A stretch of DNA of 64,000 nucleotides, taken from a virus. How positions within the stretch are numbered: the first letter of the stretch is position 1; each line of letters starts with the position of its first letter. Of the stretch, positions 7,589 to 31,244 are shown one piece after another. The notes beneath the pieces are model-generated. The model was not told the DNA's origin. It did no database searches and worked only from the letters and a program-made list of their open reading frames with translations. The translations under genes and the position numbers were made by a program. The stretch lies in UHGV virus genome UHGV-1380027, one strand, 5' to 3'.

Positions 7589-9334
7589 TTAACGTTGTGC
7601 AATAACCACATCCACAATATCACCAACACCACAATATGTCAATTGTAGCAAGGTGACACTGTTGGCTTTGTTGTTAATAACAGGAGTAGCCGACAGTATG
7701 GCATATTTATCGTGTAAAGTCACGTTGTGGCCTACAGCATCCTGAATGACATAGATGATTGCAGTGAACGGGTAAGGTTTATCTTCAGCCGATGTTCCAG
7801 GCCATTGCCCTATTGTAAAATCCCCTTTCGCGTGGACAACATACATATTGGCCTGCCCGTTAGGTGTCCATGTCCCACTAGATGCGTCAGCCTCCTCTAA
7901 GTCAAACTCCACCTTCCCTGCATGGAAAGCAGGGGCAGTAATAGTTTTACCAGCTTCAATTTCTTGAGAGGTGGTTATCTTGCCACTAGAGTTAATGCCA
8001 TTACAGACAAAGTTGACATTAGAGAAGTCTGGCAGCCACCCAGTCACTGTACCTGATATTTCAAGGTTGTGAAGGTGGGTGGTGCCAGTCCCTGCTGCGT
8101 TTAAACTAACATCTCCATTTACCTGCAAGTTTCTGGTAACGTTGCAGTTTTCAGAGTTTGCAGTTGTTGCAGTTAAAGTGGTGGTTGTCAGCTCGGTAAT
8201 TACACCTTTGTTGGCTGTAAGTCCTTCTCCTTCAAAAGTGGCACGCTCATTCACCCTCAGAGTATTTAAAGATATGTTCTGGACAGATGCTGTGCCACGA
8301 ATGACTATAGATCCTCCAACCTCTAAATCTCCATTGATCAGTGCATCTCCCGTGCTTTCAATATAGCTAGGGTAGATCATGGTGCCATCTACAGAGTAGG
8401 TTATCCCTGTAACGGTGCCTGTCACCTCAAGGTTCTTAACCCTAGTGGTCCCATCAACCTGCAATGTCGGTTCGGTGGCTGCCTTCATGGCATTACCGCG
8501 AATGTACACGTAGTCAAAAAAGTTATTACCTAGACCATCAAAATGCACATCGTTGTTATTAGCCACTGGTTTCCCAGAAGTTATAGTGTCAGCTATAACT
8601 CTGTGAGTTGATACTTCATGAGGTTGCAGCTCTGTGCTCCTCCAGTCTGCATGCTTAGGATCGCTCCACGCAAAAGTCAGTGTAGAAGTATTTGCCGTAA
8701 GGATTAGGTTCCTGAAGCGTGCAGTAGAATCTGCTCCATTAACAGGTCCGTGTAAGGTAAGGGTACCCCCAACTATAGTGTTAGCAAGTTCTGTAAGACC
8801 TTTTACCACCAAAGATCCTACAGTAACTTTCATCCCCTCCATGGCTTTAAATATGCTATCCACATAGTCAACAACAAACTCTGTGTTTGCTATAGACTCG
8901 GACTTATCATCCATTGGAGGTGTAGGTACTCTCGGGTCACCTTCGAACCTTGGGCTGTTAAGTTTTGCGTAGTATTTTGCCATTACTGCAGAGTCGGTGT
9001 ATAATCTCCAGTTCGGAGATTGTGAAGGATCTGCTGGCATCCTAACCGGGTTAGATTTTGACGCTGCTGGAGCGTACCACCACTGAGGGCCTGTATCTCC
9101 TTTAAACTCATACAGCTGGTTAAAAACTGTTGTGGATGCACCATACGCCCAAGGGATCGGTGGCGTTTTAAAATAAAGGTTGTCAAGCATGGCTTTTCGT
9201 ACCGTAGGGATAGTGGTCCCATCCTCTACGACAACTTCATCCACAGCGTTACCGTTGACAACCAAGTGCAAACGTTCAGAATCAACAATTACTTGATCTA
9301 CCGCCTGCTCGAAGCTTGTCATGTCTTGCGCCAT
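7589..9334 (-). CDS. tail fiber/tailspike protein
   Basis: 581 aa, Thr/Gly/Asn-rich repeats typical of beta-helical fibers; co-oriented within the fiber cluster. Confidence 0.45.
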   Translation of the reverse strand: MAQDMTSFEQAVDQVIVDSERLHLVVNGNAVDEVVVEDGTTIPTVRKAMLDNLYFKTPPIPWAYGASTTVFNQLYEFKGDTGPQWWYAPAASKSNPVRMPADPSQSPNWRLYTDSAVMAKYYAKLNSPRFEGDPRVPTPPMDDKSESIANTEFVVDYVDSIFKAMEGMKVTVGSLVVKGLTELANTIVGGTLTLHGPVNGADSTARFRNLILTANTSTLTFAWSDPKHADWRSTELQPHEVSTHRVIADTITSGKPVANNNDVHFDGLGNNFFDYVYIRGNAMKAATEPTLQVDGTTRVKNLEVTGTVTGITYSVDGTMIYPSYIESTGDALINGDLEVGGSIVIRGTASVQNISLNTLRVNERATFEGEGLTANKGVITELTTTTLTATTANSENCNVTRNLQVNGDVSLNAAGTGTTHLHNLEISGTVTGWLPDFSNVNFVCNGINSSGKITTSQEIEAGKTITAPAFHAGKVEFDLEEADASSGTWTPNGQANMYVVHAKGDFTIGQWPGTSAEDKPYPFTAIIYVIQDAVGHNVTLHDKYAILSATPVINNKANSVTLLQLTYCGVGDIVDVVIAQR

Positions 9335-12731: not shown

Positions 12732-14804
12732 TTATGAGAAGTCTGGCGGAACAACATCTTCTACATACCCTTTCAGAGCAACCTGCCCCATATGCAGAAC
12801 AGTAGAATCTCTGGCGGTAACAGTGATGCTGTCAGACATTACTTGCGGGTATGCCCACACATACTGTTTTACCTCAGGGTATCTATACTCTATGGTTGCC
12901 ATGTTTCCGCAAATACATCTCCATAAAAATTCTTGGTAATTCCTGGTTGGGTCGTAGCCATATACCGGAGCAAGCTCTTTGCTAGGAACGAACCCTGCAA
13001 GGTATTGTATTTCAGACGGTTTCCAACCTAACTTAACGATAGGTATGTTTACAGACTCTTTTGCCTTTTCAATACCTCCCTGCATCACCCAATCGTAGCA
13101 CTCAGTGCAGAAGAAATCAAGAGCACCTGCTTCCTTTTTATATTGGTCAGCAAGGTTCAGTTTTTGCGTAAGCTCGGTTTCCATAATAGTGGGGAAAAAC
13201 AGTAAAGCTGTCATCTGAGCCGATGCAGCGTGTGCTTTTATTGCCTTTGAAATGGCTGCAATACGAGCGCCAAGCTTACCACGACAAAATGCTACATACT
13301 TGTCATAAACACCGCCAGTTTTAGGATCGTCAATAGTCCCAATGTCTAGTGCATATTCACCAGTCTCATCATAAAACGCCTGCTTTGTAGGGTAGTCATA
13401 AATACAAGGCTTACGAGTATCGGTATTGAACCACCACCACGGTTCACCAATCTGCATAATCACTGGTAGGTTGTTTCTCATAGCGGCTGATGCAAAATTC
13501 TTAAATACTGCAGTAAGGAAATTCATGCCCTCTTCAATGGTTGGAGACAGGAGGTAACTACAAGGCGTATAGCCTGTTTTAGCATAGTTATCGTTCCAGT
13601 CTCTCTGGGTCCATTCCAACGGACAGGCATCGCTATAAAGCTCAAAGCTTACAGACTGCATAACGTCGAAGTCATGTCGTTTGGCATTGTACATAAAATC
13701 ATCATGCCATTTATAAGCTGCAGCGTTTAGAGCTCCTGTTTTGTTTATAGACCATTGGGTTCCTGACCATGTGTAGTCATAATAATGGCTCATACCAACA
13801 TAATGGTTTATGGTTCCTGTATAGCCCAGACGCTTGATATTGCTCAACACCCTTAAAGGGGATACGTTCCACATATCGTCATATGCTGTGCAGATCCCAA
13901 CATCGTGTTCTTTCACCTGAATATTGTTAAGTTGCATCATTTTCCAGCCTGTGTCCGGCTGAAGAAGATCTAGACGCAACTCACACTCTACATTTTCCGT
14001 TCTCGGGTCTGTGCTATTACCTACCCAATCTTTAGGCATAAGTGGTATTAGAATCCTTCTCACCTGCCGAGGATCAACACCCATCATGTTGTTGTTCTGG
14101 TCCATCCCGACGCAGTCCTCGAAATCAATATGAATTTCTGCAACATTCTTATCCTCTGAGATGCTGACAGCATATTGAGCTAAAGGAACATAGATGATTG
14201 TACCATCAACAAGGTCTACAGGCATAATCATCTTTTCAGGGGTGGAGAAGTTGCTGGCATTGGTTATTGACATTCTGAACCAAAGCTTGGTGTTTCTCAT
14301 CTCGTAGTGATCATCAAATCCAATGCCGAAATGGTCATACTTGTCAACTGTTTCCCAAATGCACCCAGCCATGCCCCCATATGTTCTTGACACTAAACGG
14401 TTAATACAGCAGTTATTATCCGCAACAATACAGGTGCTTTCAGTCTGCTGTGTGGTTGTAACCCAGTATCTTGGGTGAAACATTCTCTCCTCAACTGTAT
14501 CCCAAGATATTCTGTCAAGATTCTCATCTGAAACTATTGTACATTTCGCTCTTTGTGTTCCAATCATAACCCCTTGGGAGTTTGATGAAAACTCCATAAA
14601 GAAGCTCCTTGGCAACCTGTTTGGCAATTTGTCAACAATTTCTACAGGGATCTCGATACTGGTTGCCCCAACCGGGATAGTTACATCGCCCTCAACATGA
14701 TCATAATCCCTACCCGGAACTGCAGTATCTTGAACTGTGCGGTAATGAAACCGTGCAGCCATTGTAGAGTAATCACGGTAAGGTTTAAAAACAGCTGTTG
14801 CCAT
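12732..14804 (-). CDS. tail-associated protein, possibly enzymatic
   Basis: 690 aa between baseplate-like genes and fiber genes; Trp/Tyr/Asp-rich sequence suggestive of a carbohydrate-active fold; no specific motif confirmed. Confidence 0.35.
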   Translation of the reverse strand: MATAVFKPYRDYSTMAARFHYRTVQDTAVPGRDYDHVEGDVTIPVGATSIEIPVEIVDKLPNRLPRSFFMEFSSNSQGVMIGTQRAKCTIVSDENLDRISWDTVEERMFHPRYWVTTTQQTESTCIVADNNCCINRLVSRTYGGMAGCIWETVDKYDHFGIGFDDHYEMRNTKLWFRMSITNASNFSTPEKMIMPVDLVDGTIIYVPLAQYAVSISEDKNVAEIHIDFEDCVGMDQNNNMMGVDPRQVRRILIPLMPKDWVGNSTDPRTENVECELRLDLLQPDTGWKMMQLNNIQVKEHDVGICTAYDDMWNVSPLRVLSNIKRLGYTGTINHYVGMSHYYDYTWSGTQWSINKTGALNAAAYKWHDDFMYNAKRHDFDVMQSVSFELYSDACPLEWTQRDWNDNYAKTGYTPCSYLLSPTIEEGMNFLTAVFKNFASAAMRNNLPVIMQIGEPWWWFNTDTRKPCIYDYPTKQAFYDETGEYALDIGTIDDPKTGGVYDKYVAFCRGKLGARIAAISKAIKAHAASAQMTALLFFPTIMETELTQKLNLADQYKKEAGALDFFCTECYDWVMQGGIEKAKESVNIPIVKLGWKPSEIQYLAGFVPSKELAPVYGYDPTRNYQEFLWRCICGNMATIEYRYPEVKQYVWAYPQVMSDSITVTARDSTVLHMGQVALKGYVEDVVPPDFS

Positions 14805-21921: not shown

Positions 21922-22501
21922 AAAAGTTGATAACTATATTATCACCTTTCTGCATAGCATCAACCTTTTGCTTAATCTTATAGAGATCCCTGATATGAAA
22001 TCTACCCTTCGGAGATTGAGTTATTATCTTCATAGTATCCCCTGCGGCAATAGGTTTTCTAAGTCTTGGTGATATGTTTATAACAGCTGCCCCCACACCA
22101 TCACTTCGCACTGAGGATGTCACAACTTTCAACTCATCATTGACAGATATTTTATCCCCAGCCCTGACTATATCTCTGTTCGGTTCCCAACCAACCGTCT
22201 TCAAAAAATCGTCATTACCAGTTGGTCCTAGAGCGATTGGTTCATTGGAAGTAACTGAATGACCATAAGCCTTGATAAGAAAAATGTTTCCATCTTTGTA
22301 AACCTGATCAACAAAACTTTTAAGCTCCAATAGCTGGGACTCACTTATATTGGAAACCGTCAAAGTTCCTTTCCAGTTGGGCGTGGCATAGGTTACTTTT
22401 TGCGTCTTACCTGTAAACGGGCTTTTAAACGTAACAATATCTGCCAGCAACTCCAATCTAATATCTGGAAGATATCTAGGTCTTTCCCATAAAAACATCA
22501 T
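21908..22501 (-). CDS. minor tail protein
   Basis: 197 aa, first gene of the tip-complex cluster after a terminator; assignment by position only. Confidence 0.3.
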   Translation of the reverse strand: MMFLWERPRYLPDIRLELLADIVTFKSPFTGKTQKVTYATPNWKGTLTVSNISESQLLELKSFVDQVYKDGNIFLIKAYGHSVTSNEPIALGPTGNDDFLKTVGWEPNRDIVRAGDKISVNDELKVVTSSVRSDGVGAAVINISPRLRKPIAAGDTMKIITQSPKGRFHIRDLYKIKQKVDAMQKGDNIVINFFEDF

Positions 22502-22560
22502 GCCTCCAGGTTAAACAATTATGATAGTTATTTTACCAGATTTTAAGTTAATACGCAATA

Positions 22561-22590
22561 CAAACAAAAAGCCCTCGCCGAAGCGAGGGC
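22561..22590 (-). terminator. rho-independent terminator
   Basis: minus-strand hairpin GCCCTCGCTTCGGCGAGGGC followed by TTTTTGTTTG; located after the 22597-22929 gene. Confidence 0.65.
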
Positions 22591-22596
22591 AATACT

Positions 22597-22929
22597 TTAA
22601 AGTGCTTCCAAGGTAGATACTGATGGGTCGAACATGTTCAACCTTATCGGATCTACAATTTTTCCGCTTTTAGAGATGATATTTTCTGCATCTTCGTCTA
22701 GAGCCAGAACGTTGACATAAAACAATTCACTTTTCTCGCAAACCGGGTAGACAACCATGTTGCCAAACTCATCCTCGGCCTCATAAGTGTCTTCAGTTTC
22801 TGTGTAAATGAACCCGACAACCTCTACAAGAAGGGTGTTTTGCAACACCTCATTCTCGTAAAAGCCGATTTCGTCCATGAAACCGTTAAAATCCTCCCTA
22901 CCAGTAAACCCAAGGGTAAAAGTATTCAT
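22597..22929 (-). CDS. hypothetical acidic protein
   Basis: 110 aa, highly acidic; stop/start overlap with the upstream 1198-aa gene suggests coupling. Confidence 0.3.
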   Translation of the reverse strand: MNTFTLGFTGREDFNGFMDEIGFYENEVLQNTLLVEVVGFIYTETEDTYEAEDEFGNMVVYPVCEKSELFYVNVLALDEDAENIISKSGKIVDPIRLNMFDPSVSTLEAL

Positions 22930-25900
22930 TATTCAACACTCTCCATCATAAGCTGGGTGTCGGTCAATGCAGAGTTCCAAACTCTTACATCTTTAATATG
23001 ACCAAACAAATGTCTTTCACCTGTCGCCGTTTGACCTCCGAGACGGATGAGAGCGCCTCCTGCCAGGAATTCCCAAGAAGATTGCGTTTCCGTACTCACC
23101 AATCCGTTAGCAAAAGAGCAGGTTTTACCGTCATCTTTTATCCTGAACCCAATTTTCAATTTACGTGTTTTAGCCATCTCATAGACACGTCTGTTTGAAC
23201 CGCCAATATCACAATATGGATAACCATCTTCTGCAATATTTGCTGCAGAGCCAAATCCCATGATAAATGCAGCACCTGATTGGTGGCCCTCTGTATCAAT
23301 AACCCTAGGAGCTGCGTTAGGAGCTTTTCCCCAACCTCTCCAGTTGGCATCCACCGTAGCGGCGATGGTGAACGGTCTAGGTGCTAAATTATCAGTCATT
23401 GGGAATTTACAAAGGTCTGCTGCCCTAGTCACTGGTGAAGACCCTGTAGGGATAAACGAGGACTCACAAGATCCTAACTCGAACTGAGGTATTGCGACGT
23501 CAACCCAATCCCCTACGGCATGTTGAGAACCATCCGGTGGGGCAATCTGGAACTGGCACCCAATATTCATGTCAGAGTCCACTGCCTCAAACGTAGCAAC
23601 AACTCTTATCCAAGCAGGTCCGGCTGTTTGCCATCTCTCAGCTTTTACTTTAATTCTCCCAGCTGCACCACCTGTTGTTTTAACTTCAAGTGTTGACAGG
23701 TTAACATAGGCATCACCCTGGAATACTGTGGTAGATCCGTTATACATGTCGAATCTTACACGCAGTCTCTGGTGAGCTTTACCACCTCTTGCAATAATAG
23801 ACCCAGTACAAAATTTCTCAGCGCCTGTTACATCTGCACCACGGGTGGCTGGAACTGTAGCCAGGTTTAACGCTGTTGTTTCTACACCGGATACGTTGCT
23901 TACTGTAAATCTTGCACCTTTTGTTCCGTTAGTGTTTGTTACAGTGTTACCGACCGTAATCTGTGACTGGGCTCCCCATTTGCTCGGGTCTTCACTGTTA
24001 AGCATCAGATTTGTCCTTTGACCTTCAATGAGCAGCCCATCTCTTTCGAAACGTGGTTGGTTTGCTTGTGCAACAGCCATAACACCGCGCTTAGTGAAAT
24101 AGGTTGCGGTAGAAGGTCTGGAGAAGATCATCTCCCCCTCACCTAACACAGGTTTCAGGTTAGAGGTTAAAGGTAGCCACAGGTCTGGCATAACTGGGGC
24201 AGTTGTACTTTCTGGGAAGCTAGTTCTCTTCCAAGGGCTCCAGTTCATTCCACTTCCAGTGTTATTATAATACCTTTCCCACGTCCCACCAAGATACATT
24301 TTATATATCTGGACACACCCAGTACCCTCGTTGGCAGAGTTTCTAAGCACGATCAGCGTACCAGCCATCTGCTGTCCTGGTGGATAGTGTCTTTCCGCTG
24401 TGGCGTTGGCATTTGCCTCTTGATGGTAAATACCTTCGCGATCAGCTTTGTAATCGTTAAGGTCACTAGTACCCAACCCTTGACCACGGTGCTGAATAAC
24501 TTTGTTCCACGCTCTGTGGTTACCCTGCTCTATGGAACGGGTGTACAGCTGATCTAAACGGCCTGCCATCTGGAAAGCATAGTTTCCAGAAAATGCCACA
24601 GACAACCCGCCAACAACCATTGAACCTTCAGGTCCGTTGACATTGCCAGCCAGTATTTTGGACGGATTATTATTCCCGAACTGATTGTTCCAATCTGCAC
24701 CAGTATGACATACAAAACCACCCGGTGCTGAGAAAGTACCATCTTTGTTGAAATTGTAGAATCTGTGAGCAGAACCTACAACATCACGAACAATAACTTG
24801 ACCAGCTTCTGGAGTAGATCTGAACTCTGCCTGGCCTTTGAGGCCAGCACCATTGCCGCATTTAGAGGTAAATGTACCGTTAGTCAGATCCTCTGTCCCA
24901 TCTGATGCACACTGGAATCCTGCATTAGAGAATAACGCCTTTCTAGGACTGCTGTAGCACAAATAGTCAATACCGTCTGCCCATAGCTCGACTTTCGGCA
25001 TGTTCATTTTGCTCATCACTGCATAGCGTTCAGCAGTGCCTATATAGTGCCACTGTGTGCCGCCGCCAGTGTAGAACCCAGAGGTGCCTTTGAAGTCAAC
25101 AATAGGTCTGGTGTTAGTAATGTTATCTCCAAGAACAGCAAGATTCAAGTCAGCTGACTGGAGAGGTGAAACGAACTTAACACCGTCCTGATTGTTTGTT
25201 ACAGAGCCGACCTGATAATCTTGCTCTCTGGTAAACACTTCGACAACATTTCTACTCGCGTATATGCTGACAGGGAAAGCACGAGCCTCCACATAGAAAG
25301 CAACATACTCTTGTTTACCCCTTGTTGGAGCAACCATCCCAAGAATTGCTTTTTCATTCTGGTAGAAATTTACTACCCCGTAGAAAGAGTCTCCTCTGTC
25401 TGTCCATCCTCCAGTTCTATAGTGACACTGTAAGGTAGCGCAGTTCATAGGGTCATTTCCAGATGACGATCTGGTAACTATGGTAATATCAGTGCCAGTT
25501 GCTGGAGCATAGTACGGATCTGTTCTAACGATGATAGGGTAGTATTTCCCATCTTCCATTCCTGCGGTTCTTGGCAGTGTTAAGAAGTCTTTTACACCTG
25601 CTGCTATAGGAACTTTGAACAGATTCTGAGCATCTGCTAAAGTTGTAGCCCCTGTGCCGCCTTGCTCTATAGCAAGAGGTTGCCACGAAGCTGTTTGTTG
25701 GTTCCACATACCCCAACGGCCTGTTGCATCAAGCTGCAAGTACCCTGCTGTGTTTAAATCATCTCCGGCACGGATAACTGTTCTTGTTGGGTTGTTTGCC
25801 TCCAGGTGTTTAAATTCGTCACGAAGTGCTATTCTTTTTGTTGTTGCTACACCGTTGGTTACTGCAATGGTATACATGGCTCCGGAGGTAGCGCCACGGA

Positions 25901-26525
25901 AAATGCCATCAACAGTTGTAGTATCACGACGAGATACCACACCGTTCAGAAATTTTTCACCCGCCGCTTCAGAAGGGTAGTTAGTAGTTCTTCCCTCTTC
26001 AATAACTGCAGGACCAACAAAGTTGACAAGGTGAATAACATCGCCTACAGTATGCACTGTGCCAAAATCTACCCGCTGTGCAAGTGCTTTAGCATCGTTG
26101 GCTGTCTGAACAGTAACATCCATTACATCCTGGACAGACTGCCCTTCGGCTGTCATGATCATAGATGCGCCAATGGTAGACTCCAGCTCCTCCCTTAAGG
26201 ACGGATCTGTATATACCATCCACGCAGCGTCAGTAATCCCACCGTCAGAATATGGTGAAGACAGTGCAGGGACAGTGTGTGGAAATTCGCCTTTCCAACG
26301 CAGGTATAGATCTTCCTCTTCGAAGTAGGCAAAATCCATTGGGCCGTTTAACTTACCACCTTCCTTAAAGGAGATTACATGAGAAACAGTCCCATCCACA
26401 TGGACAACATCGCCAATTTTTACACGACGGGTCAGGTCTGGTTGTTGAACAACCAGGTAATCATCCTCTGTCACTGCGGTAGTGGCAGGAAGAGATTCAA
26501 TTCTGACAACTTTAATATCAGCCAT
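22929..26525 (-). CDS. tailspike/tail fiber protein with C-terminal lectin-like (LamG-type) domain
   Basis: 1198 aa; N-terminal about 80 aa share a motif with the 222-aa product of 29160-29828; C-terminus (GERHLFGHIKDVRVWNSALTDTQL) resembles concanavalin/LamG-type domain ends. Confidence 0.45.
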   Translation of the reverse strand: MADIKVVRIESLPATTAVTEDDYLVVQQPDLTRRVKIGDVVHVDGTVSHVISFKEGGKLNGPMDFAYFEEEDLYLRWKGEFPHTVPALSSPYSDGGITDAAWMVYTDPSLREELESTIGASMIMTAEGQSVQDVMDVTVQTANDAKALAQRVDFGTVHTVGDVIHLVNFVGPAVIEEGRTTNYPSEAAGEKFLNGVVSRRDTTTVDGIFRGATSGAMYTIAVTNGVATTKRIALRDEFKHLEANNPTRTVIRAGDDLNTAGYLQLDATGRWGMWNQQTASWQPLAIEQGGTGATTLADAQNLFKVPIAAGVKDFLTLPRTAGMEDGKYYPIIVRTDPYYAPATGTDITIVTRSSSGNDPMNCATLQCHYRTGGWTDRGDSFYGVVNFYQNEKAILGMVAPTRGKQEYVAFYVEARAFPVSIYASRNVVEVFTREQDYQVGSVTNNQDGVKFVSPLQSADLNLAVLGDNITNTRPIVDFKGTSGFYTGGGTQWHYIGTAERYAVMSKMNMPKVELWADGIDYLCYSSPRKALFSNAGFQCASDGTEDLTNGTFTSKCGNGAGLKGQAEFRSTPEAGQVIVRDVVGSAHRFYNFNKDGTFSAPGGFVCHTGADWNNQFGNNNPSKILAGNVNGPEGSMVVGGLSVAFSGNYAFQMAGRLDQLYTRSIEQGNHRAWNKVIQHRGQGLGTSDLNDYKADREGIYHQEANANATAERHYPPGQQMAGTLIVLRNSANEGTGCVQIYKMYLGGTWERYYNNTGSGMNWSPWKRTSFPESTTAPVMPDLWLPLTSNLKPVLGEGEMIFSRPSTATYFTKRGVMAVAQANQPRFERDGLLIEGQRTNLMLNSEDPSKWGAQSQITVGNTVTNTNGTKGARFTVSNVSGVETTALNLATVPATRGADVTGAEKFCTGSIIARGGKAHQRLRVRFDMYNGSTTVFQGDAYVNLSTLEVKTTGGAAGRIKVKAERWQTAGPAWIRVVATFEAVDSDMNIGCQFQIAPPDGSQHAVGDWVDVAIPQFELGSCESSFIPTGSSPVTRAADLCKFPMTDNLAPRPFTIAATVDANWRGWGKAPNAAPRVIDTEGHQSGAAFIMGFGSAANIAEDGYPYCDIGGSNRRVYEMAKTRKLKIGFRIKDDGKTCSFANGLVSTETQSSWEFLAGGALIRLGGQTATGERHLFGHIKDVRVWNSALTDTQLMMESVE

Positions 26526-26560
26526 TCTTTCTCCTGAAAGGGGGCAAACAGCCCCCTATG

Positions 26561-29158
26561 TTAAAGGTACAATCCACGGTATTGAGCATAAAGTCCCAGA
26601 CCGCGAAGGATTTCGCCAGAGTGATAGCCTACCGGATCAGAAACTGCCCAGCAGCCGTTTAAAACATTATCCCCGTTAATGAAGTGGTGCTTTTGCAGTA
26701 ACTTCACACAGGCTTCTACAACAATATCTATTTGAGGTATTGTCTCTGAATACCCGCAAAGACCTAGCCAGCAGCAACCTGCAAGCCATTCACCTACCAC
26801 CCACATCCTGTCTCCTCTGTCCTGATAAGAGTATCCTCCAGAGGTGTTAAAGTCTGTAGGTAGATTTCCTGAATGAGATGACCGGAATCTGTTGAGGAAC
26901 CATGCCCATTTCTGGCAGAACAGGAACAGTCTTTCATCAACAGGTTCTTTATGTTTCTTGAGCTCATATATTGTGCGGCACGCAGCAACAAAAGATCTTG
27001 ACTGGAGCTTAGAGTTATCTACCATCTCCCACCAACCAGTCAACCCTTCATTACCTCTCTGCCATACATAACGTGAGGCAACTGGACCCTCTGTCTTAAA
27101 TGTATTGTTATACCAGACTTGAGAGTCATACAGAAAGCCTATTGTATTTGACAATCTATGGCGGTCTATGTTTTCTGCCCCCATGCAGTAGACTGCTGGG
27201 TATTGCATACCAGGATAGGGCCAACTTGGCCTTTCCTCTAAGAGATAATTTTCCTTATCTATCACCTTTCCAGCAGGGAACACACCCGGCGTGTGCCTGT
27301 ATGCACCTTGCTTGTAGTTTCTGACATAACAATCGCCAACCTTAGCGGTTGATTCTGTCTTGCTTGCCATCCATACACTAAACCAAATTAGGTAAGCATC
27401 TCTATCTGCAACATAAAATTGCGGTAGCGTGTTGACGCAATACAGATCAAACAAGCCATTACCTATCTGCCTGTCGCTCAGACTGAAATCTACAGAGGTG
27501 ATCCCTTTGGTGTTAGCAAAGAAAGGTTTAATCTCCTCTTCGGTGTGATGAGGTTGTGTAGGGTCTAGTTTAAAATCTCCCAGAGTAAGAGTTTCTGTTA
27601 TCCATTGTCCATTAGTGGCATATAGATCAGCATACCATAACCAACGGTCTTTGTCAAGAAATTTGACCCTTACCATCTCATCATCTGATCGATAAGTTAC
27701 TGAGTTTAAAGAAATCTCTCTTCCAAAATTGAAAGTTACCTTGCCTCTTACTATGTTGCAACGGGTGAAGTTGTCAGAGTGGTTGTAAATGTCGGTATCA
27801 TACTGCATACTAACACTAGCGCCACCGCTTACGGCAATGTTTTCCTCTTTTGGCAAGAGATACGGGTTACCGTCTTTACCAACCACCTCTACAAAATCAG
27901 TAACCTTGGCAACTGTTTCTGTTACCTCTGCCCCTCCAAAAGGTACACCTATTCTGTACTGTTTTTTGTTATTGTTGCCATCATTAAGGATGAAATGTGG
28001 CTGGAACAGAACCCCTTCTCCTCCGAAATTCATAACAATTTCAGCATCTCTGCCTATTTTGTATGTAGTCCCTTTTTGGATTATTTCGCAAGGCTGGCGT
28101 GCGTTCATTCTAAAATTGATATATCCGTCACTATCCCTACTCATGACAGGTACTGTTCCTGCAACTAGACAAGTACCATCTGTGAACGGGGCCTTAATCA
28201 ACGTGGTCTTTCTGAACAGCTTGTCGTAGGCATTTATATCACTAAAATTAAGCAACTTATTGTAAGACTGCTTAAACGCGGTGTAATACTTTTCCTCACC
28301 TGTCAGGGTGTAGAGTTGATAACAAGCGTCACACCACATCTCTTCCCCATCTAACTCTGGGGCTTGATTGTCTGCAACCACGTTTATAGGATTTACAATT
28401 ACAGGGGATCCAGCAGGTATCACCGATCCGCCCTGCTCTTGAGGCAATCTCACACAATAGGTAACCTTGTGGTTGCCTGTAACACCCTTATCTTGCAGTT
28501 GGATTGTGCCGAACTCTGCAGACGTATGACCACTGTCGGCTATGCTACCGTTGGCCCAATAGCGGTTACCATCCCATGCTATATACCACTCAACCAACCA
28601 ACTTAATCCGGAAGTTGTCCAATTAGGATTAGCATCTGTGCCGCCGTAAACATCAGAGTCTACAGTGTTTCTTCCTAAAACACCGTTATACGCCTGAAAA
28701 GCCTTGTCCAAGTATTCTCCCCATGTCGGGGATCCTGCTGGGATTTTTCCTCTACCTTTGTTAAAAGACACAACCACATCTTTAAACCCACCATGTGATG
28801 GAACTCCATCTGTGGATAACGGGTAGTGGGACAATCTTTGCATTTTACTTTCTACTGCATATACTCCCAGAAGATGACTGTTGTAGGCTTCCCAAGCCTC
28901 TTTGGCCCTGTCCAGATAAAAATCGCTTTTTGATGCCCTGTATGCCTCAATGTATCCCAGAATCAACACAGCTTGGGACTCATGCATTGCCCAATCATTG
29001 TTTATCTTACTCCCTGACCAACCTGACGCTATAAGTCCATCCTGGTTTACCAGTTTGTTCTGTGTAGGGAGATTGGTAATACCTGTGTTGTTATCGAGGC
29101 ACTTCCTGTGCCCCTCGATCATCTGAAATACGTTATCAATGTTGTGTTGAATACGCAT
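26561..29158 (-). CDS. tailspike-like protein, putative glycoside hydrolase
   Basis: 865 aa, Trp/Tyr/Asp/Asn-rich composition typical of carbohydrate-active enzymes; located among tail genes. Confidence 0.4.
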   Translation of the reverse strand: MRIQHNIDNVFQMIEGHRKCLDNNTGITNLPTQNKLVNQDGLIASGWSGSKINNDWAMHESQAVLILGYIEAYRASKSDFYLDRAKEAWEAYNSHLLGVYAVESKMQRLSHYPLSTDGVPSHGGFKDVVVSFNKGRGKIPAGSPTWGEYLDKAFQAYNGVLGRNTVDSDVYGGTDANPNWTTSGLSWLVEWYIAWDGNRYWANGSIADSGHTSAEFGTIQLQDKGVTGNHKVTYCVRLPQEQGGSVIPAGSPVIVNPINVVADNQAPELDGEEMWCDACYQLYTLTGEEKYYTAFKQSYNKLLNFSDINAYDKLFRKTTLIKAPFTDGTCLVAGTVPVMSRDSDGYINFRMNARQPCEIIQKGTTYKIGRDAEIVMNFGGEGVLFQPHFILNDGNNNKKQYRIGVPFGGAEVTETVAKVTDFVEVVGKDGNPYLLPKEENIAVSGGASVSMQYDTDIYNHSDNFTRCNIVRGKVTFNFGREISLNSVTYRSDDEMVRVKFLDKDRWLWYADLYATNGQWITETLTLGDFKLDPTQPHHTEEEIKPFFANTKGITSVDFSLSDRQIGNGLFDLYCVNTLPQFYVADRDAYLIWFSVWMASKTESTAKVGDCYVRNYKQGAYRHTPGVFPAGKVIDKENYLLEERPSWPYPGMQYPAVYCMGAENIDRHRLSNTIGFLYDSQVWYNNTFKTEGPVASRYVWQRGNEGLTGWWEMVDNSKLQSRSFVAACRTIYELKKHKEPVDERLFLFCQKWAWFLNRFRSSHSGNLPTDFNTSGGYSYQDRGDRMWVVGEWLAGCCWLGLCGYSETIPQIDIVVEACVKLLQKHHFINGDNVLNGCWAVSDPVGYHSGEILRGLGLYAQYRGLYL

Positions 29159-29159
29159 C

Positions 29160-29828
29160 TTAGATAGCTCCTGCGATGATCAATGCCCCGTACCAAGTTA
29201 GTCCATTATCATATGTTTCCAACTTGAAAATGTCTGTTGCACCAGCTGTAAATGTTAGGATAGGATCTCTTCCGTAGGCCCATTTAACATTGTCAGGCCA
29301 ATAAACTTTGTTACCACCAGAGGTCTGCGTTATGCATACAGTTATAGTTCTTGCCACTCCGTCGAGCCCTTCTGTTTGATTTTCAAAAGAGATTGTGGTA
29401 TTTGAAGTGAGCCGAACTTTAAACGTGTCTGCAACGTCAAGATCCATGTCAAGTTGACCACCAATAGAGCCGTAATCAACTATCCTACCTGAAGAAGTTG
29501 CAGCAAGCTCTCCAAAAACAGACCATGCTTTTGCAGACACACCTCCGGCACCCTCTACAGTGGAATCTGGGAGGATTATTTTAGGATAATCTCCATTCCA
29601 TGTGTAGTAGCGCTTAGTTTCCGGATCATAAGCAAAATCCTTCTTGCTCTTAAGATAACCGCCTTCTGTGAAATAAACTATTTTAGTAATGCTAAGATCA
29701 TTGACAACATCATCAATCTTAGCCTTTCTTGTCCCGTCAGTCTGGTTGACAACCAAGAAGTCATCACTCAAGACTGTTTCTGCATCTTCAAGATCTGGGA
29801 TTGGTATTGTAGGATAAGCTACAGCCAT
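29160..29828 (-). CDS. tail protein sharing an N-terminal anchor module with the 1198-aa tailspike
   Basis: 222 aa; N-terminus (DDFLVVNQTDGTRKAKIDDVV...FTEGGYL...DFAY) parallels the N-terminus of the 22929-26525 product. Confidence 0.4.
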   Translation of the reverse strand: MAVAYPTIPIPDLEDAETVLSDDFLVVNQTDGTRKAKIDDVVNDLSITKIVYFTEGGYLKSKKDFAYDPETKRYYTWNGDYPKIILPDSTVEGAGGVSAKAWSVFGELAATSSGRIVDYGSIGGQLDMDLDVADTFKVRLTSNTTISFENQTEGLDGVARTITVCITQTSGGNKVYWPDNVKWAYGRDPILTFTAGATDIFKLETYDNGLTWYGALIIAGAI

Positions 29829-29837
29829 GATTTCTCC

Positions 29838-30554
29838 TTAGTTAACATCAATAGCACGACCAGACTGGTTGGCAATAGCCTCATCATTAGAGGTAGCAAT
29901 AACACCAGAATATTCGCGATCATCTGGAGCAAGCGTCCAGGTATTGCGGTTAATGGTTTGTTCTGCATCAGTCATCAGCAGATCTTTATCCTGAGTCAAC
30001 AGAGAACCTACAGGGATCGGGTTTTCCATCTCAGGACCAGCATACTGGTTCCACCACGTAGCATCTCCAGTTCTAGGCAATCTGAAATTGATCAGGTAGT
30101 ACAGTTTATTAGCCCACTTAATCCAACCTTCATCATCACAAAGAGAGGTTGCCCCGTCATCAGGCTGTGGGTAGGTAAACTGATCAAGACCTACGAAAGC
30201 CAGCCTTACAATCTCGTTCTCCTTGGTAACAACCTCAAAGAACGCTTGGTATGTTCTCGATCTTCGATCCATAGTAGACTGGAAGTTTATGATGTTTAGC
30301 ACATCTGGCTCTTGTCTTGCCACTTCCATAATCTTGTTATCAAGAACAGTCTTCATGACCTTCTTACTGAGAAAGTCCATATAAGGGAAGCCAAACAACT
30401 CATCAAAGTACCAGCTCCCCTTCCATGTATTAAACCTCATCCACAGGCGCTGGCGCAGACTTACTTGGTTTGAATCTATCAACTCAAGACCTTTGTCTAT
30501 CGCCAAATCACCTGTCTGTGGGTCCATCAATATATCACTATAAAGCGTAGCCAT
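29838..30554 (-). CDS. baseplate protein
   Basis: 238 aa, directly downstream of the spike-like gene; assignment by position. Confidence 0.3.
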   Translation of the reverse strand: MATLYSDILMDPQTGDLAIDKGLELIDSNQVSLRQRLWMRFNTWKGSWYFDELFGFPYMDFLSKKVMKTVLDNKIMEVARQEPDVLNIINFQSTMDRRSRTYQAFFEVVTKENEIVRLAFVGLDQFTYPQPDDGATSLCDDEGWIKWANKLYYLINFRLPRTGDATWWNQYAGPEMENPIPVGSLLTQDKDLLMTDAEQTINRNTWTLAPDDREYSGVIATSNDEAIANQSGRAIDVN

Positions 30555-30566
30555 TCAAGCCCTCTA

Positions 30567-31244
30567 TTAGTGCGGTCCACTTGTCTCGCCATCAGGGCAA
30601 GAGTGGGTATGACCTTTATATTCTGCATAGAATGAGTCCAAATCCACACCAGCAGCCGTTATAATTCTACCTGATGGGTCTATTGTGGCACCATTCATTC
30701 TGATATTTCCATCCACAGCAGCTCGTAAATTGGCAGCCCCGTTGGTGAAAGAAAACTCCCCGCTACTGTCGCACCGTAATGTCCCACCAGGTGTTTGAAG
30801 CTCAAAATCACCAGAAGGTGTCAGCTTAAAATAAACCCTATCATTCCATAACTCCACATTATCAGGATCGATCTGTAAAGCGTTAGAGTCTGAATGAACA
30901 GAGGTTATTGCCCACCCTGGAAACAGGCCGTGAGTTTGTTGATCATCATTATTGTTTTCATTTCTCTCTGAAAACTGCAATCCTACAACATCACCAGCCT
31001 TAATAGGAAGTGTTAACCTTGCCTTCCCGCTGTTTGCAGACATCACCTGGATTGGCACATCATAGATAAGAGGGTATCTCTCAACATCCCCGTCATCAAA
31101 CGTGGTTTCAGCTATTGGCTGCACTGCTGCGGAGGGGATACTGTAATCTACACTGACAACTCTGGCCCTGATACTGGTGTGGTAGTCCCTCATTATTTTT
31201 TCTATAAAGGATCTTACAGCAGCATCTTTCCTATTAATTGCCAT
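30567..31244 (-). CDS. baseplate central spike-like protein (gpV-like)
   Basis: 225 aa; size and His-rich C-terminus (GHTHSCPDGETSGPH) are reminiscent of P2 gpV-type spikes. Confidence 0.35.
   Translation of the reverse strand: MAINRKDAAVRSFIEKIMRDYHTSIRARVVSVDYSIPSAAVQPIAETTFDDGDVERYPLIYDVPIQVMSANSGKARLTLPIKAGDVVGLQFSERNENNNDDQQTHGLFPGWAITSVHSDSNALQIDPDNVELWNDRVYFKLTPSGDFELQTPGGTLRCDSSGEFSFTNGAANLRAAVDGNIRMNGATIDPSGRIITAAGVDLDSFYAEYKGHTHSCPDGETSGPH

Follow-up and report, generated by a model that had tools for sequence, protein, structure and literature searches.

The DNA considered here is a 64,000-nucleotide (nt) stretch of UHGV virus genome UHGV-1380027, which we call the window. Three consecutive genes within it, encoding tail proteins of 222, 865 and 1198 amino acids (aa), are our main subject; a fourth, encoding a 690-aa protein, lies farther along (Table 1). 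All four open reading frames (ORFs) are on the minus strand, at the positions given for them in a preliminary description of the sequence. On that strand, the tape measure gene is followed by the genes for tube initiator, hub, central spike and a sheath-initiator-like protein (29838-30554), next by the 222-, 865- and 1198-aa genes, and then by distal tail and baseplate genes.

In a megablast search, the region 22000-30600 matches 124 phage records, mostly genomes of Vequintavirus at 93-95% identity. The best match, Escherichia phage S127 BCL3, aligns over the full query in a single piece at 98.4%, and 35 records cover at least 80% of this 8.6-kilobase query at 93-98% identity. By nucleotide identity, then, the window belongs to Vequintavirus: it is an rV5-like myovirus, a coliphage. 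Its gene order agrees with those of Bas49 EmilHeitz and rV5_ev146, and the locus corresponds, with orthologous genes in the same order and DNA 93-98% identical, to the Vequintavirus lateral fibre locus of rV5 and of BASEL phages such as Bas49. Judged by size and position, the 222-, 865- and 1198-aa genes are orthologues of rV5 gp43, gp42 and gp41, respectively, all three of which have been found in virions by mass spectrometry.

Table 1. Features of the three-gene locus, and the 690-aa gene, in window coordinates
Feature	Position	Strand	Basis or remark
222-aa protein gene, apparent rV5 gp43 orthologue, proposed adaptor (anchor + knob)	29160..29828	minus	ORF; DNA 93-98% identical to Vequintavirus genomes
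First anchor sub-motif, 222-aa residues 1-45	29694..29828	minus	..i.dL.....v..dDfLVV.Q.D.TRk.KI.DVV
Tail_spike_N domain, 222-aa residues 46-105	29514..29693	minus	PF18668, E = 3e-10, 40.4 bits, residues 51-104
Predicted C-terminal knob (C-terminal domain, CTD), 222-aa residues 115-222	29163..29486	minus	Q.tG.NkvtWPdNvKW..G..P.L.y..g..D...l.t.D.G.tW.G.
865-aa protein gene, apparent rV5 gp42 orthologue	26561..29158	minus	ORF; six-hairpin glycosidase-like barrel (predicted)
Glu60 codon, candidate catalytic acid	28979..28981	minus	Invariant in 15 family members, motif T(T/S)EGQ (hESQ in window)
Asp270 codon	28349..28351	minus	Invariant, motif (n)aaDaE.W..DA; resembles GH8 signature SASDGDVWMAW
Beta-sandwich module, 865-aa residues 480-579	27422..27721	minus	Also stands alone at C-terminus of another fibre protein
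1198-aa putative lateral tail fibre gene, apparent allele of rV5 gp41 and Bas49 bas49_0026	22929..26525	minus	
Second anchor copy, 1198-aa residues 1-105	26211..26525	minus	Tail_spike_N 40.6 bits; BLASTP; phmmer
Putative exchangeable distal head, lectin/ConA-like, 1198-aa residues 791-1198	22932..24155	minus	tblastn; phrog_1419, phrog_5939; weak Laminin_G_3
690-aa protein gene	12732..14804	minus	ORF

The small protein, its knob and the gene that follows

The 222-aa protein matches phrog_7760 'tail fiber protein' (E = 3e-118), and its N-terminus is shared with the 1198-aa protein. A motif common to the two had been noticed in the preliminary description, and it holds up on formal alignment: residues 8-105 of the smaller protein align by BLASTP with residues 7-105 of the larger at 38 of 99 positions (38%; E = 2e-18), as in the paired strings FLVVNQTDGTRKAKIDDVV / YLVVQQPDLTRRVKIGDVV and EGGYLKSKKDFAY / EGGKLNGPMDFAY. 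The likeness is specific, too. When either N-terminus was compared by phmmer with the 309 six-frame ORFs of the window, the other protein was matched (E = 2e-17 and 1e-18) and no further copy was found, the next match having E > 0.3. The module is bipartite: some 45 residues make up the first segment, and residues 46-105 the Pfam domain Tail_spike_N (PF18668), which both proteins match well above its cut-off of 25 (40.4 bits for the 222-aa protein, 40.6 for the 1198-aa protein). Going by these matches, the shared N-terminus is a recognized N-terminal domain of tailspikes and fibers. Tail_spike_N hits among Protein Data Bank (PDB) sequences are N-terminal parts of tailspikes (9occ_G, 8x8m, 5w6f and 4oj5, for example), and in solved structures the domain occupies the N-terminal part of CBA120 TSP1, TSP3 and TSP4, of G7C gp63.1, and of several newer tail proteins. 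Kropinski et al. noted that the N-terminus of rV5 gp43 resembles that of the P22 tailspike.

The first segment occurs elsewhere. A hidden Markov model (HMM) of its two window copies, run against 692 ORFs, matches phi92 gp140 (E = 6e-7), its close relative in another context, a 157-aa protein (L007; 2e-6), and also the phi92 endosialidase gp143 (7e-6). In phi92, a Justusliebigvirus, gp140 and gp143 thus share an N-terminal sub-motif as the 222- and 1198-aa proteins do here, and so the pairing of a small protein with a major fiber through a common N-terminus is conserved between two subfamilies. The likeness has its limits: gp140 possesses only a segment of some 40 residues and no Tail_spike_N domain, and gp143 is an endosialidase tailspike rather than a lectin-headed fiber. 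Both the domain match and the recurrence of the pairing in phi92 favor the common attachment domain that had been suggested for this locus.

The remainder of the 222-aa protein is predicted to form a beta-sandwich knob of about 100 residues. In the AlphaFold2 (AF2) model, residues 114-222 are all beta (pLDDT ~80-88); the N-terminal half of the model is unusable. Fold matches to the knob are weak to moderate, and fall among small trimeric spikes and N-terminal tailspike fragments: the Pa223 capsid spike (2.5e-4; 6.0), Solidus gp83 (4.3e-4; 7.4), and, weakly similar, N-terminal fragments of CBA120 TSP4 (3.3e-3; 7.0-7.1). The Pa223 spike, gp52, is a trimer that attaches by a segment of 40 residues, has a triple beta-helix and ends in a knob.

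A profile search with the CTD found 15 small proteins. In all 12 of the contexts we curated, the gene immediately upstream of an 865-family gene encodes a small knob-ended protein, and the two genes abut or overlap. Examples are phi92 (gp140, 157 aa, and gp141, 958 aa, likewise following the sheath initiator), SPN3US (156 and 1005 aa), phiEa104 (gp072, 244 aa, and gp073, 1157 aa), SE4 (gp52, 206 aa, and gp51, 986 aa) and Aeromonas phage Atoyac23 (270 and 934 aa). The association appears from whichever side it is approached. Starting from distant homologues of the 865-aa protein (contexts L003, L004 and L005), the abutting upstream genes encode proteins of 153, 244 and 473 aa that have unrelated N-termini and yet all end in the ~100-residue knob (BLASTP E = 2e-20, 2e-20 and 1e-9). 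Starting from the knob (contexts L007-L010), the next gene belongs to the 865 family (E = 6e-167 to 2e-81 in comparison with the window's protein). IMG/VR, scanned independently for the knob pattern, yielded 46 loci, two of them cut by a contig end and so outside the evaluable set; wherever the knob match was strong (E <= 1e-31), the enzyme gene lay 8-43 nt downstream, in 29 of 29 evaluable loci. The preliminary description had the 222-aa protein simply carrying a distal module of its own. Its knob turns out, instead, to mark small proteins that always precede an 865-family gene.

What changes from one lineage to another is the other end of the small protein. The N-terminal part is Tail_spike_N here, a 40-aa segment in phi92, a fiber-like stretch in phiEa104, a coiled coil plus SPRY domain in a Burkholderia prophage, and a T7 tail-fiber N-terminal domain in Atoyac23 (46.3 bits; Pfam cut-off, 25.2). 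That last domain mounts gp17 on the tail of T7. In Atoyac23, a T7-like podovirus, the protein in the fiber position has, besides its T7 anchor, just a coiled coil and the knob; the 934-aa enzyme-like protein comes next. The new observation, then, is that the knob stays constant upstream of the 865-family gene while the N-terminal anchor changes with the type of virion. Pairwise identities among knobs are correlated with those among the enzyme-like proteins (r = 0.63, Mantel p ~2e-4, 11 pairs). In phage S144, ORF16 (21 kDa) and ORF17 (111 kDa) were both found in virions, the large protein by 25 peptides; we infer by size, and by synteny with SE4 rather than by sequence, that these correspond to the same pair.

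The glycosidase-like protein and the lateral fiber

The 865-aa gene starts 1 nt past the stop codon of the 222-aa gene. Pfam and PDB sequence searches found no relative of its product, and a word-indexed search found six clusters of homologues only; a full HMMER scan, by comparison, gathered 363 protein clusters, and tblastn found 525 phage records, among them Phapecoctavirus, Justusliebigvirus, Seoulvirus (SPN3US), Kolesnikvirus, Loughboroughvirus, a T7-like Aeromonas phage and Vibrio phages. The AF2 model (pLDDT 71) places helices at residues 2-23, 59-95, 269-319 and 654-860, and beta regions at 101-237 and 330-613. The predicted fold is an (alpha/alpha)6 barrel, like that of glycoside hydrolases, interrupted by two large beta insertions. 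The protein had been described as a hydrolase-like spike. The enzyme-like part of that description finds support in the predicted fold and none in any sequence family; the spike part needs correcting, the predicted barrel being unlike the beta-helix of a classical spike.

When 15 members that share 24-36% identity with the window protein are aligned, E60, Q62 and D270 prove invariant. The E. coli GH8 enzyme BcsZ has TTSEGQSYGM and SASDGDVWMAW in the same order as the E60 and D270 motifs of the phage protein, and the wider spacing between the two in the latter is equal to the first beta insertion. The glutamate of the TSEGQ-type motif in BcsZ we take to be the catalytic acid. The (alpha/alpha)6 barrel is also the fold of clan GH-M, the six-hairpin hydrolases of GH8 and GH48 to which BcsZ belongs; the phage protein differs from these in its two large insertions, and in having no significant sequence or profile match to them. 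Membership of GH8 was considered and rejected: against BcsZ, hhalign gave a probability below 1% for the whole protein and for the barrel by itself, which leaves the motif resemblance alone. The Pfam scan of family members found no GH8 match, only a sub-threshold match to GH76 (E = 0.0049), and the profile search of PDB sequences turned up nothing beyond one helix hairpin of a cellobiose 2-epimerase (E = 0.002). We limit our claim, therefore, to the predicted fold and to E60 and D270 as a plausible acid pair.

Residues 480-579, a beta-sandwich within the barrel, match phrog_23426 (E = 2e-13) and, by BLASTP, residues 365-464 of Erwinia phage phiEa104 gp071 (E = 2e-14). Since these last form the C-terminus of gp071, the match suggests a mobile domain, possibly one that binds carbohydrate. 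Close homologues of the 865-aa protein lack any recognizable anchor domain. The first ~25 residues of the family are nonetheless conserved, with G16 and G26 invariant in the alignment of 15, and several members have N-terminal extensions. The authors of the S144 study reported an HHpred hydrolase signal for the presumed 865-family protein of that phage, and remarked that it resembles neither a spike nor a fiber.

Fusions of the six-hairpin domain to other tail modules occur as well (proteins P0084-P0144, P0087 and P0141). Many six-hairpin proteins of ~1000 aa are extended at the N-terminus by a conserved stretch of 120-150 residues, and in two proteins of ~2000 aa the domain is C-terminal, behind an apparent tail-tip protein.

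The 1198-aa protein had been called a LamG-ending tailspike. It matches phrog_6578 'tail fiber protein', and is 91-95% identical to a 1478-aa protein of Bas49 from which, by comparison, it lacks one internal segment of ~280 residues. Its last 408 residues match, by tblastn at 28-49% identity over ~400 aa, the C-termini of side or lateral tail fibers of siphoviruses: T5-like, T1-like, Dhillonvirus and lambda-like phages. In the RBPseg study, a Bas49 fiber was modeled with a lectin-like head where Bas54 has a peptidase-S74 end, and was located at the baseplate wedge with cryo-electron microscopy (cryo-EM); this fiber is probably the orthologue of the 1198-aa protein. The gp41 allele of rV5 also has a peptidase-S74 end, in place of the lectin-type head found here. 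Because its head is homologous to those of siphovirus side fibers, and because of the Bas49 fiber structure, we regard the 1198-aa protein as a lateral tail fiber with a lectin-like head, not as an enzymatic tailspike. 'LamG-ending' agrees with that head, although the Laminin_G_3 match itself (E = 0.0013, 19.4 bits) is below the cut-off of 27.6.

The junction of the missing segment is at 25626-25715, in an element, W..W.PL....GGTGA, that is repeated. Of the best megablast hits, S127 BCL3 alone aligns without a break, and so the short allele appears to be uncommon. The start codon of a 110-aa ORF (22597-22929, minus strand) overlaps the stop codon of the fiber gene. This ORF belongs to a conserved family, phrog_1361, and is annotated as hypothetical in relatives; it could encode a fiber assembly factor.

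One appendage, or two neighbors

Because the knob family is always found just upstream of an 865-family gene, we think the 222- and 865-aa products are best read as the two parts of one appendage, an adaptor and an enzyme. The anchor module would probably fix the 222- and 1198-aa proteins, as trimers, either to equivalent sites at the periphery of the baseplate or to one another. The 1198-aa protein would then be a long lateral fiber ending in an exchangeable lectin-like head, and the 222-aa protein a short adaptor rather than a receptor binder in its own right, its knob partnering the protein encoded next, by a translationally coupled gene. The 865-aa protein, which has no anchor of its own, would hang on the tail by this adaptor as a non-fibrous enzyme that cleaves, or perhaps only binds, glycans, its inserted beta-sandwich modules possibly being carbohydrate-binding. 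Knob and enzyme would move between phages as a unit, with each lineage supplying its own N-terminal anchor. Such an arrangement would account for the missing anchor of the 865-aa protein, for the translational coupling of the two genes, for a pair that stays together even as its anchor is exchanged to fit each virion, and for the presence of both proteins in particles. Taken as a whole—shared anchor, lectin-headed fiber, glycosidase-like protein carried by an adaptor, mobile cassette, with trimer state, docking, contact and catalysis as its conjectural steps—we consider this picture moderately probable.

Several observations pull the other way. In 15 IMG/VR loci, knob-like domains with more distant matches (E = 1e-8 to 1e-18) end fibers of 228-1034 aa, and the genes downstream are unrelated. 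A universal link between knob and enzyme for the wider fold has to be rejected, and the fold itself occurs independently of this enzyme. The model of the 865-aa protein is of moderate confidence, at pLDDT 71 and from 7 sequences, and the sequence methods (Pfam, profile search and hhalign) tie the family to no CAZy family. A search for fusions of knob and enzyme turned up a weak match between the N-terminal extension of P0055 and the knob HMM (hmmsearch E = 3e-4), to which hhalign gave a probability of 10% over 29 columns; we do not count it as evidence of fusion. The correlated divergence of knob and enzyme, finally, could reflect co-inheritance alone.

The most serious alternative is that the 222-aa protein works alone, as a short trimeric spike whose knob binds the host directly, and that the 865-aa protein is mounted independently by its own N-terminal helix, the genes being neighbors only through joint inheritance and expression. 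The structures that best match the 222-aa model in fold are, after all, small trimeric spikes that attach by an N-terminal segment and end in a knob, and the knob of one of them, Pa223 gp52, is proposed to bind a host structure directly. The distant knob-like domains on ordinary fibers fit this alternative, as do the conserved first residues of the 865 family and its two invariant glycines. It fits poorly, on the other hand, with a linkage that is perfect across very different types of virion, in the curated contexts and the evaluable IMG/VR loci alike; with the absence of a recognizable anchor from close homologues of the 865-aa protein; and with Atoyac23, where a T7-anchored protein offers only a coiled coil and a knob before the enzyme-like protein begins. 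On balance we think it unlikely.

Alternatively, one partner might be an assembly factor—the 865-aa protein folding or maturing the small fiber, or the small protein chaperoning the enzyme—with no lasting appendage formed. Tight translational coupling of a fiber gene to the gene downstream is typical of fiber-chaperone pairs, and small proteins of 180-260 aa come after the distant knob-like fibers. Both proteins are present in purified virions, however, in rV5 (gp42 and gp43) and, by our equation, in S144 (ORF16 and ORF17), and at 865-1157 aa, with a predicted glycosidase fold, the larger one is unlike a chaperone; we consider this quite improbable. That the shared N-terminus is a mere remnant of duplication or recombination among tail genes, with no common docking role, is more improbable still: tail fiber genes are mosaic and their N-terminal segments are often exchanged, but these two copies, only 38% identical, have kept their length and motif order, the pairing of small protein and major fiber is kept in a different subfamily, in phi92, and the Tail_spike_N family sits in the N-terminal part of the solved CBA120 and G7C tailspikes.

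If adaptor and enzyme do form one appendage, the idea can be carried a step further, more tentatively. The pair might be a widespread and undescribed two-component device for host recognition, in which a short trimeric adaptor, its anchor differing by lineage, bears one non-fibrous, GH8-like (alpha/alpha)6 glycanase on the baseplates of myoviruses and the tails of podoviruses and prophages, and in phi92 it might be gp140-gp141 that makes up fiber II. In the 2026 cryo-EM study of phi92, fiber II is short, thick and rigid, and attached at the base of fiber I; gp140 was tested there alone, gp141 was never mentioned, and fiber II was left unassigned. Since gp140 shares its N-terminal segment with gp143, and fiber II sits at the base of fiber I, gp140-gp141 is a reasonable candidate. 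The identification is speculation, and the wider proposal, though possible, is doubtful.

Known systems and the rest of the tail

That several enzymatic spikes on one particle point to a branched apparatus of multiple specificities had been suggested for this locus. Multiple fibers with multiple specificities are indeed on record for the group—the 'Swiss army knife' of phi92 and rV5 relatives has been published—and the branching, with the attachment that underlies it, we would put conditionally. The BASEL paper describes several co-expressed fibers with glycan-active domains, which genes make which fiber being unclear, and RBPseg found only three of nine annotated fibers in the density, along with extra density that was not explained. 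In the literature on rV5- and phi92-like phages we found no assignment of gp42 and gp43, or of gp140 and gp141. Conserved N-terminal anchors and adaptor-mounted spikes are likewise a general principle already published. The branched tailspike complexes of CBA120 (TSP1-4) and G7C (gp63.1 and gp66), and the adaptor-tailspike systems of K1-5, K1E and SP6-like podoviruses, follow the same logic: various receptor-active proteins are mounted by N-terminal modules that are conserved, and one protein is the platform on which another sits, as we propose here. Tail_spike_N is common to those systems and to this one, where it stands on two different proteins. The differences lie in the protein carried, here a predicted (alpha/alpha)6 barrel without its own anchor instead of a trimeric beta-helix spike, and in the platform, here a terminal knob of ~100 residues; branching domains like those of T4 gp10 (XD) were not clearly identified. 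By the predicted fold of the 865-aa protein and the head homology of the 1198-aa protein, neither appears to have the trimeric beta-helix body of a depolymerase. The head of the 1198-aa protein, homologous to those of siphovirus side fibers, is carried here on a myovirus fiber with a Tail_spike_N anchor.

The distant knob-like domains that end fibers in IMG/VR are of WPSNVKW type; they lie at loci L047-L061, where the downstream genes are tightly coupled, unrelated and mostly without family match; one group of them encodes proteins of 606-967 aa that begin MSRLTK..RRERTNARI.

Farther along the minus strand are genes for a gpJ-like protein of 1277 aa, the 690-aa protein, and two short tail fibers and a chaperone; those for proteins of 581 and 1878 aa end the series. 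The 690-aa protein has Calx-beta, NCTSP_N and NCTSP TIM barrel domains (the last at E = 7e-80), which are those of the N4 gp65 non-contractile sheath protein. Literature ties the conserved fiber of this type to the enterobacterial common antigen or the N4 glycan receptor. The 581-aa protein (7589-9334) gave no match in a Pfam scan. Its N-terminus, ..VIVDSERLHLVVNGNA..TIPTVRKAMLDNLYFK, is like that of the phi92 colanidase tailspike gp150, and would be a second, different type of anchor within the same tail. At about 54000, the guanine-cytosine skew changes sign and the coding strand changes from minus to plus, marking the border between the structural and the divergently transcribed modules. 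Between 18 and 23 GenBank records in the series MG0656xx, named 'Campylobacter phage' and with Campylobacter jejuni listed as host, were matched by the region 22000-30600 and by the 865-aa protein; they are 92-97% identical to rV5-like or phi92-like phages of E. coli; their host attribution looks doubtful.

A shared anchor, and several glycan-active appendages, is a correct description of this tail and one that already forms part of the published picture of rV5- and phi92-like phages. What is added here is a concrete assignment for virion proteins left unplaced in the literature: gp42 and gp43 of rV5, gp140 and gp141 of phi92. The adaptor-enzyme cassette is a modest new point, and it makes an open structural question testable. 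If true, it names a candidate for the unassigned fiber density in phi92 and in Bas49/Bas54, and describes a portable unit of anchor, knob and enzyme that could be used to retarget phages. It would also point to a new family of virion-borne glycanases, from a group of proteins—525 phage records, 363 clusters—with no Pfam model and no solved relative. Because the 865-aa gene is almost invariant within Vequintavirus, its substrate could be a conserved glycan of the enterobacterial surface.

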